From Escherichia coli O127:H6 str. E2348/69 (GTDB taxonomy: Bacteria > Pseudomonadota > Gammaproteobacteria > Enterobacterales > Enterobacteriaceae): a stretch of 64,000 nucleotides of DNA. Shown piece after piece: positions 47,475-48,043 of the stretch. The position numbers and the translations under genes were made by a program. The stretch is taken from the NCBI RefSeq assembly GCF_000026545.1, contig NC_011601.1; one strand, 5' to 3'. Numbering within the stretch: position 1 is the stretch's first letter; the number at the start of each line of letters is the position of its first letter. The notes under the pieces were generated by a model that made no database searches, had not been told where the DNA came from, and saw nothing but the letters and a program-made list of their open reading frames with translations.

Positions 47475-47656
47475 AAAACTGGCGCGACCTGCCGCGCTAT
47501 AAACTAAAAAATTACACAAAATCATTCGCACTGCATCGAGACGGAAAGTGAATGAGAGCCGGGGAGCGTACTCGTAGTACGTGACTCGGGCGAATGAGCG
47601 TAGCCGTCGATGAGGCAGTGTGAAGGATGAAGTGTAAATAAAAAAGGAAGTGAGCA

Positions 47657-48043
47657 ATGCGTAAAAGCCTGTTAGCTATTCTTGCAGTCTCCTCATTGGT
47701 ATTCAGTTCGGCGTCGTTTGCCGCTGATCTGGAAGACAATATGGAAACCCTCAACGACAATTTAAAAGTGGTCGAAAAAGCCGATAACGCGGTGCAAGTC
47801 AAAGACGCGTTAACTAAAATGCGCGCTGCGGCGCTGGATGCGCAAAAAGCGACGCCGCCGAAGCTTGAAGGCAAATCACCGGACAGCCCGGAAATGAAAG
47901 ACTTCCGCCACGGTTTCGACATTCTGGTCGGTCAGATTGACGACGCGCTGAAGCTGGCAAATGAAGGTAAAGTAAAAGAAGCGCAGGCTGCCGCAGAGCA
48001 ACTGAAAACGACCCGCAACGCCTATCACCAGAAGTATCGTTAA
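47657..48043 (+). CDS. cybC: Soluble cytochrome b562 precursor (full length, with signal peptide)
   Basis: 128-aa product [65 protein letters not shown]...NAYHQKYR. Confidence 0.9.

Follow-up and report, generated by a model that had tools for sequence, protein, structure and literature searches.

The analysed window is a 64-kb stretch of the genome of Escherichia coli O127:H6 str. E2348/69. The region considered here contains cybC, the gene of cytochrome b562, located between pmbA, which lies on the same strand, and nrdG, which is convergent with it. The genes and their boundary features are the following.

46122..47474, plus strand: pmbA (tldE), from the ORF list and the E2348/69 RefSeq annotation, with its TAA stop codon at 47472..47474.
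47475..47656, plus strand: pmbA–cybC spacer of 182 nt, from the pmbA stop to the cybC ATG.
47480..47499, plus strand: GC-rich hairpin right after the pmbA stop, from RNA folding, with its position conserved across genera.
47644..47650, plus strand: Shine–Dalgarno sequence AAGGAAG, 6 nt ahead of the ATG at 47657.
47657..48043, plus strand: cybC ORF, encoding a 128-aa precursor, from the ORF list.
47657..47722, plus strand: signal peptide region of 22 codons, with the MRK n-region, the hydrophobic core and the SFA/A cleavage site, from the translation.
47723..48043, plus strand: mature cytochrome b562, 106 aa and the stop codon, from identity to PDB 256b/1apc and the Pfam and NCBIfam matches.
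47741..47743, plus strand: codon of the haem ligand Met7, from the aligned position in 256b/1apc.
48026..48028, plus strand: codon of the haem ligand His102, from the aligned position in 256b/1apc.
48052..48083, no strand assigned: hairpin with a 14-bp stem and a 4-nt loop between the convergent cybC and nrdG, from RNA folding (-23.3 kcal/mol, z -6.1).
48088..48552, minus strand: nrdG, from the ORF list.

Analysis of the protein encoded by cybC showed a match to the Pfam family PF07361 (Cytochrom_B562) with E 2.5e-33 and 115.2 bits against a cut-off of 30, covering profile positions 1–102 of 102, and to the NCBIfam equivalog NF011632, ‘cytochrome b562’, with 192.6 bits (cut-off 130), covering positions 1–127 of 127. 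Residues 23–128 of CybC are aligned without gaps with the 106-residue chains of 256b, 1apc and 1qpu; 103 of the 106 residues are identical, and the three substitutions relative to the solved structures are I17V, A24V and D50G. Substitution I17V is shared by K-12, and the orthologues examined from Salmonella and from other Escherichia also have V17. The identity of 97% over 106 residues to solved structures predicts a four-helix-bundle fold for CybC. RefSeq calls this ORF cybC, cytochrome b562 (WP_001232253.1), in the E2348/69 record NZ_CP059840.2, which is 100% identical. Cytochrome b562 is widely used in protein engineering, and CybC of E. coli is the parent of the BRIL fusion partner.

The leader of CybC has the n/h/c organization of a cleavable signal peptide, giving a predicted periplasmic location. 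All of the solved mature chains (256b/1apc/1qpu) begin with ADLEDN, which corresponds to residue 23 of the precursor; thus, the predicted cleavage after Ala22 fits the known mature N-terminus. The first-pass annotation had described a 128-aa precursor with a signal peptide, preceded by AAGGAAG, and each of these features is found at the positions it gave. Its proposal that the strain may retain a functional periplasmic cytochrome b562 is supported by the gene as read, in which the PF07361 and NF011632 matches, Met7 and His102 are all retained.

In the genome of E. coli K-12 MG1655 (NC_000913.3), cybC (b4236) is annotated as a pseudogene of 368 nt. Its alignment with the window contains one gap of 26 bp, matching the following segment.

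47650..47675, plus strand: 26 bp deleted in K-12, GTGAGCAATGCGTAAAAGCCTGTTAG, from the alignment with MG1655.

Beginning with the final base of the ribosome-binding site, the gap takes the rest of the spacer up to the ATG, and covers the ATG, codons 2–6 and the first base of codon 7. The sole in-frame start left in MG1655 is a TTG, opening an ORF of 115 codons, the product of which is devoid of the charged n-region and of half to most of the hydrophobic core. The loss of the start codon and of the first part of the signal peptide makes the K-12 copy a pseudogene. The statement of the first-pass annotation that K-12 cybC is annotated as a truncated pseudogene was therefore correct, both in the flag on b4236 and in the 26-bp deletion of its start codon, and the alignment showed no identical full-length ORF in K-12, the copy of which is 5'-truncated. 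The gene was also treated as a pseudogene in MG1655 in a published work, where its product is given as a soluble cytochrome whose function is unknown (PMC3349551).

The distribution of the two alleles was determined with two specific queries. Of 5426 complete E. coli genomes, 5070 were hit by a 66-bp query specific to the intact start region and 355, all at 100% identity, by a 40-bp query specific to the K-12 deletion junction; together, the two counts comprise 5425 of the 5426 genomes. Sixty junction records were sampled along the list, and each of them is a laboratory derivative of K-12, namely, MG1655, BW25113, DH5alpha, DH1, C600, J53, S17-1, MC4100, TG1, NCM3722, HMS174, ER and NEB strains, and O16:H48 mouse-colonisation isolates. 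Judged from these 60, the cybC lesion is restricted to the K-12 laboratory lineage. Since an intact gene is the species norm (5070/5426), E2348/69 is not special at cybC. Accordingly, the contrast between strains implied by the first-pass annotation is real, but its direction has to be reversed, the exception being K-12 and not E2348/69. The K-12 reference is thus atypical at this locus and represents a natural cybC null, and cytochrome b562 should be produced by wild and pathogenic strains of E. coli, E2348/69 among them. A second, independent loss of cybC was observed in NZ_OY754853.1, where an insertion of the IS66-family element ISEc22 leaves a 5'-truncated pseudogene.

Most of the pmbA–cybC spacer in the window is represented by a repetitive element, with a palindrome at its tip.

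47512..47637, plus strand: ERIC/IRU element, an imperfect palindrome of ~125 bp, from RNA folding, dispersed copies and polymorphism.
47567..47581, plus strand: palindrome cgtactcgtagtacg (cgtact-cgt-agtacg), the innermost stem and apical hairpin of the ERIC fold.

The 126 nt of 47512..47637 fold into one long imperfect hairpin of -58.9 kcal/mol (z -8.4), a stability reached by none of 200 shuffles, and the 3' end of the element lies 6 nt short of the Shine–Dalgarno sequence. The family ERIC comprises imperfect palindromes of ~127 bp (PMC6066780), which are miniature inverted-repeat elements with TA flanking their ends (PMC3184786, which cites Sharples & Lloyd 1990 and Hulton et al. 1991 for ERIC or IRU elements). 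A blastn search with the element as the query gave 17590 places in 5425 of 5426 E. coli genomes, with a median of 3 per genome, this number being that of the copies detectable with a diverged query. The other copies sampled, located between rhlB and gppA, queA and acpH, aspS and nudB, and puuR and puuC, are all intergenic. These four copies and the cybC copy are aligned end to end and have common termini, …ACACAAAATCATTC… and …TGAAGGATGAAGTGTA, and a common core, which is the target of the primers ERIC1R and ERIC2 (primer sequences were taken from PMC6066780). The queA–acpH copy is a close, imperfect match to the primer core, and the cybC copy is diverged, with 64–74% identity to the other copies, 29 of 44 positions identical to the primer core, and two 4-nt insertions flanking the core. 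On the basis of the end-to-end alignment and the termini and core common with the other copies, the element of the cybC spacer belongs to the ERIC/IRU family. Its ends read …AAT/TACAC… and …GTGTA/AAT…; no clean TA duplication is legible, the left flank of the empty allele being different. The short palindromes that the first-pass annotation had noticed in the spacer are present as described, but the ‘unclear significance’ assigned to them does not stand, as they form the tip of ERIC.

REP/BIME elements were considered for the spacer palindrome and ruled out by the size of ~125 bp and by the ERIC ends and core, the matches to naRNA4 being located elsewhere. These matches, at the Rfam gathering level, occupy 39114..39192 and 45351..45428 on the plus strand; the latter lies between mpl and yjgA, shortly upstream of pmbA–cybC. 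The family naRNA4 is a REP-derived, nucleoid-associated ncRNA. No match was found in the pmbA–cybC spacer by the gathering-level Rfam scan of the whole window, and a search for a second ERIC copy within the 64-kb window found none. In a permissive Rfam scan, the Vibrio antisense RNA V_AS5 matched 47510..47634 with E 0.008 and 25 bits, the gathering score being 96; this sub-threshold match to the whole element suggests that an ERIC-like repeat underlies the V_AS5 family. Other RNA features found in the window at the gathering level occur in their expected enterobacterial context.

4325..4409, plus strand: RpsF leader.
26461..26583, plus strand: ES239 sRNA.
29951..30008, minus strand: STnc450.
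30088..30130, minus strand: ES036.
55604..55719, plus strand: magnesium riboswitch of the mgtL/mgtA leader.

Several features of the window outside the cybC region were also recorded. At 6248..8008 (plus strand), next to rplI, RefSeq flags neighbouring frameshifted pseudogenes of a HipA-family toxin and of a protein with an HTH domain, which together represent a decayed toxin–antitoxin pair. Between rplI and ytfB, at 8151..16431 (minus strand), a metabolic cluster was found that has no gene names in the annotation and encodes a TetR regulator, 3-ketoacyl-ACP reductase, sugar-phosphate isomerase, enoyl-CoA hydratase, CoA transferase, FAD oxidoreductase and an MFS transporter. This cluster, which we take to be absent from the K-12 layout, may be a strain-variable metabolic island. 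The transposase gene of the IS4-like element ISEc13 is located at 18085..19458 (plus strand), between cycA and fklB.

The spacer of E. coli exists as filled and empty alleles. In a megablast search of all complete genomes, the match of ~1650 genomes begins no earlier than query base 163, and in two of these that were aligned the spacer is 54 nt long, with ~128 bp of the window missing. A copy with at least 90% identity, taken as the ERIC of the cybC locus, was found in 3884 records, and 1547 records have only copies of 60–80% identity elsewhere. Thus, the filled allele accounts for ~72% of E. coli genomes and the empty one, with its 54-nt spacer, for ~28%. The two alleles also differ in ~11–15 nt to the left of the element. 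Close relatives differ in this respect: E2348/69 is filled and EC22 is empty, with 98.9% identity over cybC and the downstream flank matched. Filled and empty ERIC alleles next to a ribosome-binding site are natural alleles for testing the effects of ERIC on neighbouring genes, which is a small point.

Orthologues of cybC were searched for in a collection of species-representative genomes with a codon-degenerate pattern made from a conserved segment of CybC, which gave 18 loci. All 17 full-length orthologues, from six genera, have 127–128 aa, the signal peptide, Met7 and the C-terminal motif YH(K/Q)K(Y/F)R. The gene pmbA is located directly upstream of cybC in all 16 loci with enough flanking sequence, synteny thus being conserved in six genera. 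The spacer measures 30–70 nt and contains no ERIC in Kluyvera, Kosakonia, Pluralibacter and Enterobacter, nor in two unclassified genomes, of a Proteobacteria metagenome bin and of an Enterobacteriaceae isolate, where it is equally short. These short spacers include the GC hairpin, with the exception of Enterobacter sp. kpr-6, where the spacer is 30 nt long; in Kluyvera and Pluralibacter, the hairpin carries a T-run. The conserved block AATAATAAAAAGGAAGTGAGCA is located directly before the ATG in every short-spacer locus, and the Shine–Dalgarno block AATAA(T)AAAAAGGAAGTGAGCA-ATG is conserved across Enterobacteriaceae in the 16 loci where the upstream sequence is long enough.

A profile of E. 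coli ERIC copies located the element at the equivalent site, and in the same orientation, in E. whittamii, two further Escherichia species and another E. coli. Since other Escherichia species are filled at the same site, the Escherichia insertion is older than E. coli. In Salmonella enterica subsp. diarizonae, the pmbA–cybC spacer contains an ERIC in the opposite orientation (nhmmer E 1.2e-15), and the GC hairpin is missing; the Salmonella ERIC is an independent insertion. Both the Escherichia and the Salmonella elements end within ~30 nt of the cybC start codon. In view of these two independent, oppositely oriented insertions, it is conceivable, though rather unlikely, that the pmbA–cybC spacer is a preferred landing site of ERIC and that the filled/empty polymorphism varies the cybC or pmbA message and, hence, the level of periplasmic b562. 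Processing by RNase E at the ERIC hairpin, as reported for ERICs of Yersinia, would be a possible route to such variation; transcribed ERICs can create RNase E sites affecting neighbouring mRNA (PMC3184786).

The consensus scan of 47300..48200 gave no sigma-70-like promoter ahead of cybC on the plus strand, and terminator-like sites in the same interval show no excess over shuffled sequences. The pmbA-side hairpin of E. coli has no T-run on the plus strand; it is terminator-like only on the minus strand (47482..47497), where no gene ends, and is a weak terminator at best. The hairpin at 48052..48083 is likely a shared end of the cybC and nrdG transcripts. Because the ancestral spacer is very short, transcription of cybC from pmbA or from its 3' end is the simplest reading. 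Occlusion of the ribosome-binding site by ERIC was considered and is not supported, the predicted accessibility being similar with and without the element (unpaired probability 0.50 vs 0.35, from RNA folding). Published data show that expression of cybC is higher in REL606, a B strain, than in MG1655 (PMC3446290), that CybC of Y. pestis occurs in the periplasmic fraction and is more abundant under iron starvation (PMC2835676), and that cybC of O157:H7 Sakai is up 2.2-fold at the growth transition (PMC2241611).

The locus would function as follows. The spacer of 182 nt consists of a short ancestral spacer, comprising the GC hairpin and the ribosome-binding block, and an ERIC of ~125 bp inserted between them, and cybC would be co-transcribed with pmbA through the hairpin and the ERIC. 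Translation from the good Shine–Dalgarno site would give the 128-aa precursor, which, in line with the established biochemistry of the protein, is probably exported by a Sec-type route and cleaved after Ala22. In the periplasm, the four-helix bundle would bind one non-covalent haem b via Met7 and His102.

It is very unlikely that cybC is intact yet silent in E2348/69, read-through from pmbA being blocked by the two hairpins. Such a state would agree with the upstream region, in which no promoter-like site was found, and with the GC hairpin and the very stable ERIC hairpin (-58.9 kcal/mol) that any read-through transcript would have to pass, but the E. coli hairpin is devoid of a plus-strand T-run, the ribosome-binding site is predicted to be about equally accessible with and without ERIC, and mRNA or protein was detected in REL606, O157:H7 and Y. 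pestis; moreover, retention of the gene, signal peptide, ligands and Shine–Dalgarno block in six genera argues for continued use. The same hairpin could be read as a dedicated regulatory RNA of cybC, such as a terminator/attenuator, a riboswitch or a small RNA gene, and not as a mobile repeat. Its strong predicted structure (z -8.4) and the sub-threshold V_AS5 match spanning the entire element are in favour of this, yet members of the same sequence family are located at the unrelated sites rhlB–gppA, queA–acpH, aspS–nudB and puuR–puuC, no Rfam family reaches its gathering score, and cybC with its ribosome-binding block is kept without the element both in ~28% of E. coli and in the examined non-Escherichia genera except Salmonella. 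Given these data, a dedicated regulatory RNA is highly improbable, and the spacer palindrome is best read as an ERIC.

As to K-12, the ‘pseudogene’ could be regarded as an artefact of annotation, with functional b562 still being made and no real difference between strains, given that the in-frame 115-codon TTG ORF persists in MG1655. This is scarcely credible: the deletion, identical in 355 independent assemblies, is real DNA and takes away the ATG, the n-region with its positive charge and half of the hydrophobic core, there is no Shine–Dalgarno sequence ahead of the TTG, and the MG1655 cybC transcript is below the REL606 level (PMC3446290). The preferred reading, to which we assign a probability of about 93%, is that the gene at 47657..48043 is an ordinary, already annotated cybC, with the loss in K-12 and the ERIC-bearing spacer as explained above. 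It is nothing new in kind; the additions are the exact form of the K-12 lesion and its restriction to that lineage, the recognition of the spacer palindromes as a polymorphic ERIC, and the independent ERIC of Salmonella.

Compared with known systems, the protein corresponds to the soluble cytochrome b562 of E. coli (PDB 256B, 1APC, 1QPU), with the same locus pmbA–cybC–nrdG, the same length and both ligands kept; the crystallised protein has a sequence of the B-strain type, from which that of E2348/69 differs by three conservative substitutions. In K-12 MG1655, the orthologous locus has the same ERIC-bearing spacer and ~96% nucleotide identity outside the deletion; the differences in the mature part, given as K-12 residue to E2348/69 residue, are A24V, D50G, S100A and K103Q. 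Similar to other ERIC/IRU elements, that of the cybC spacer is ~125 bp long, palindromic, intergenic in a probably transcribed spacer, dispersed, and polymorphic in its presence or absence.
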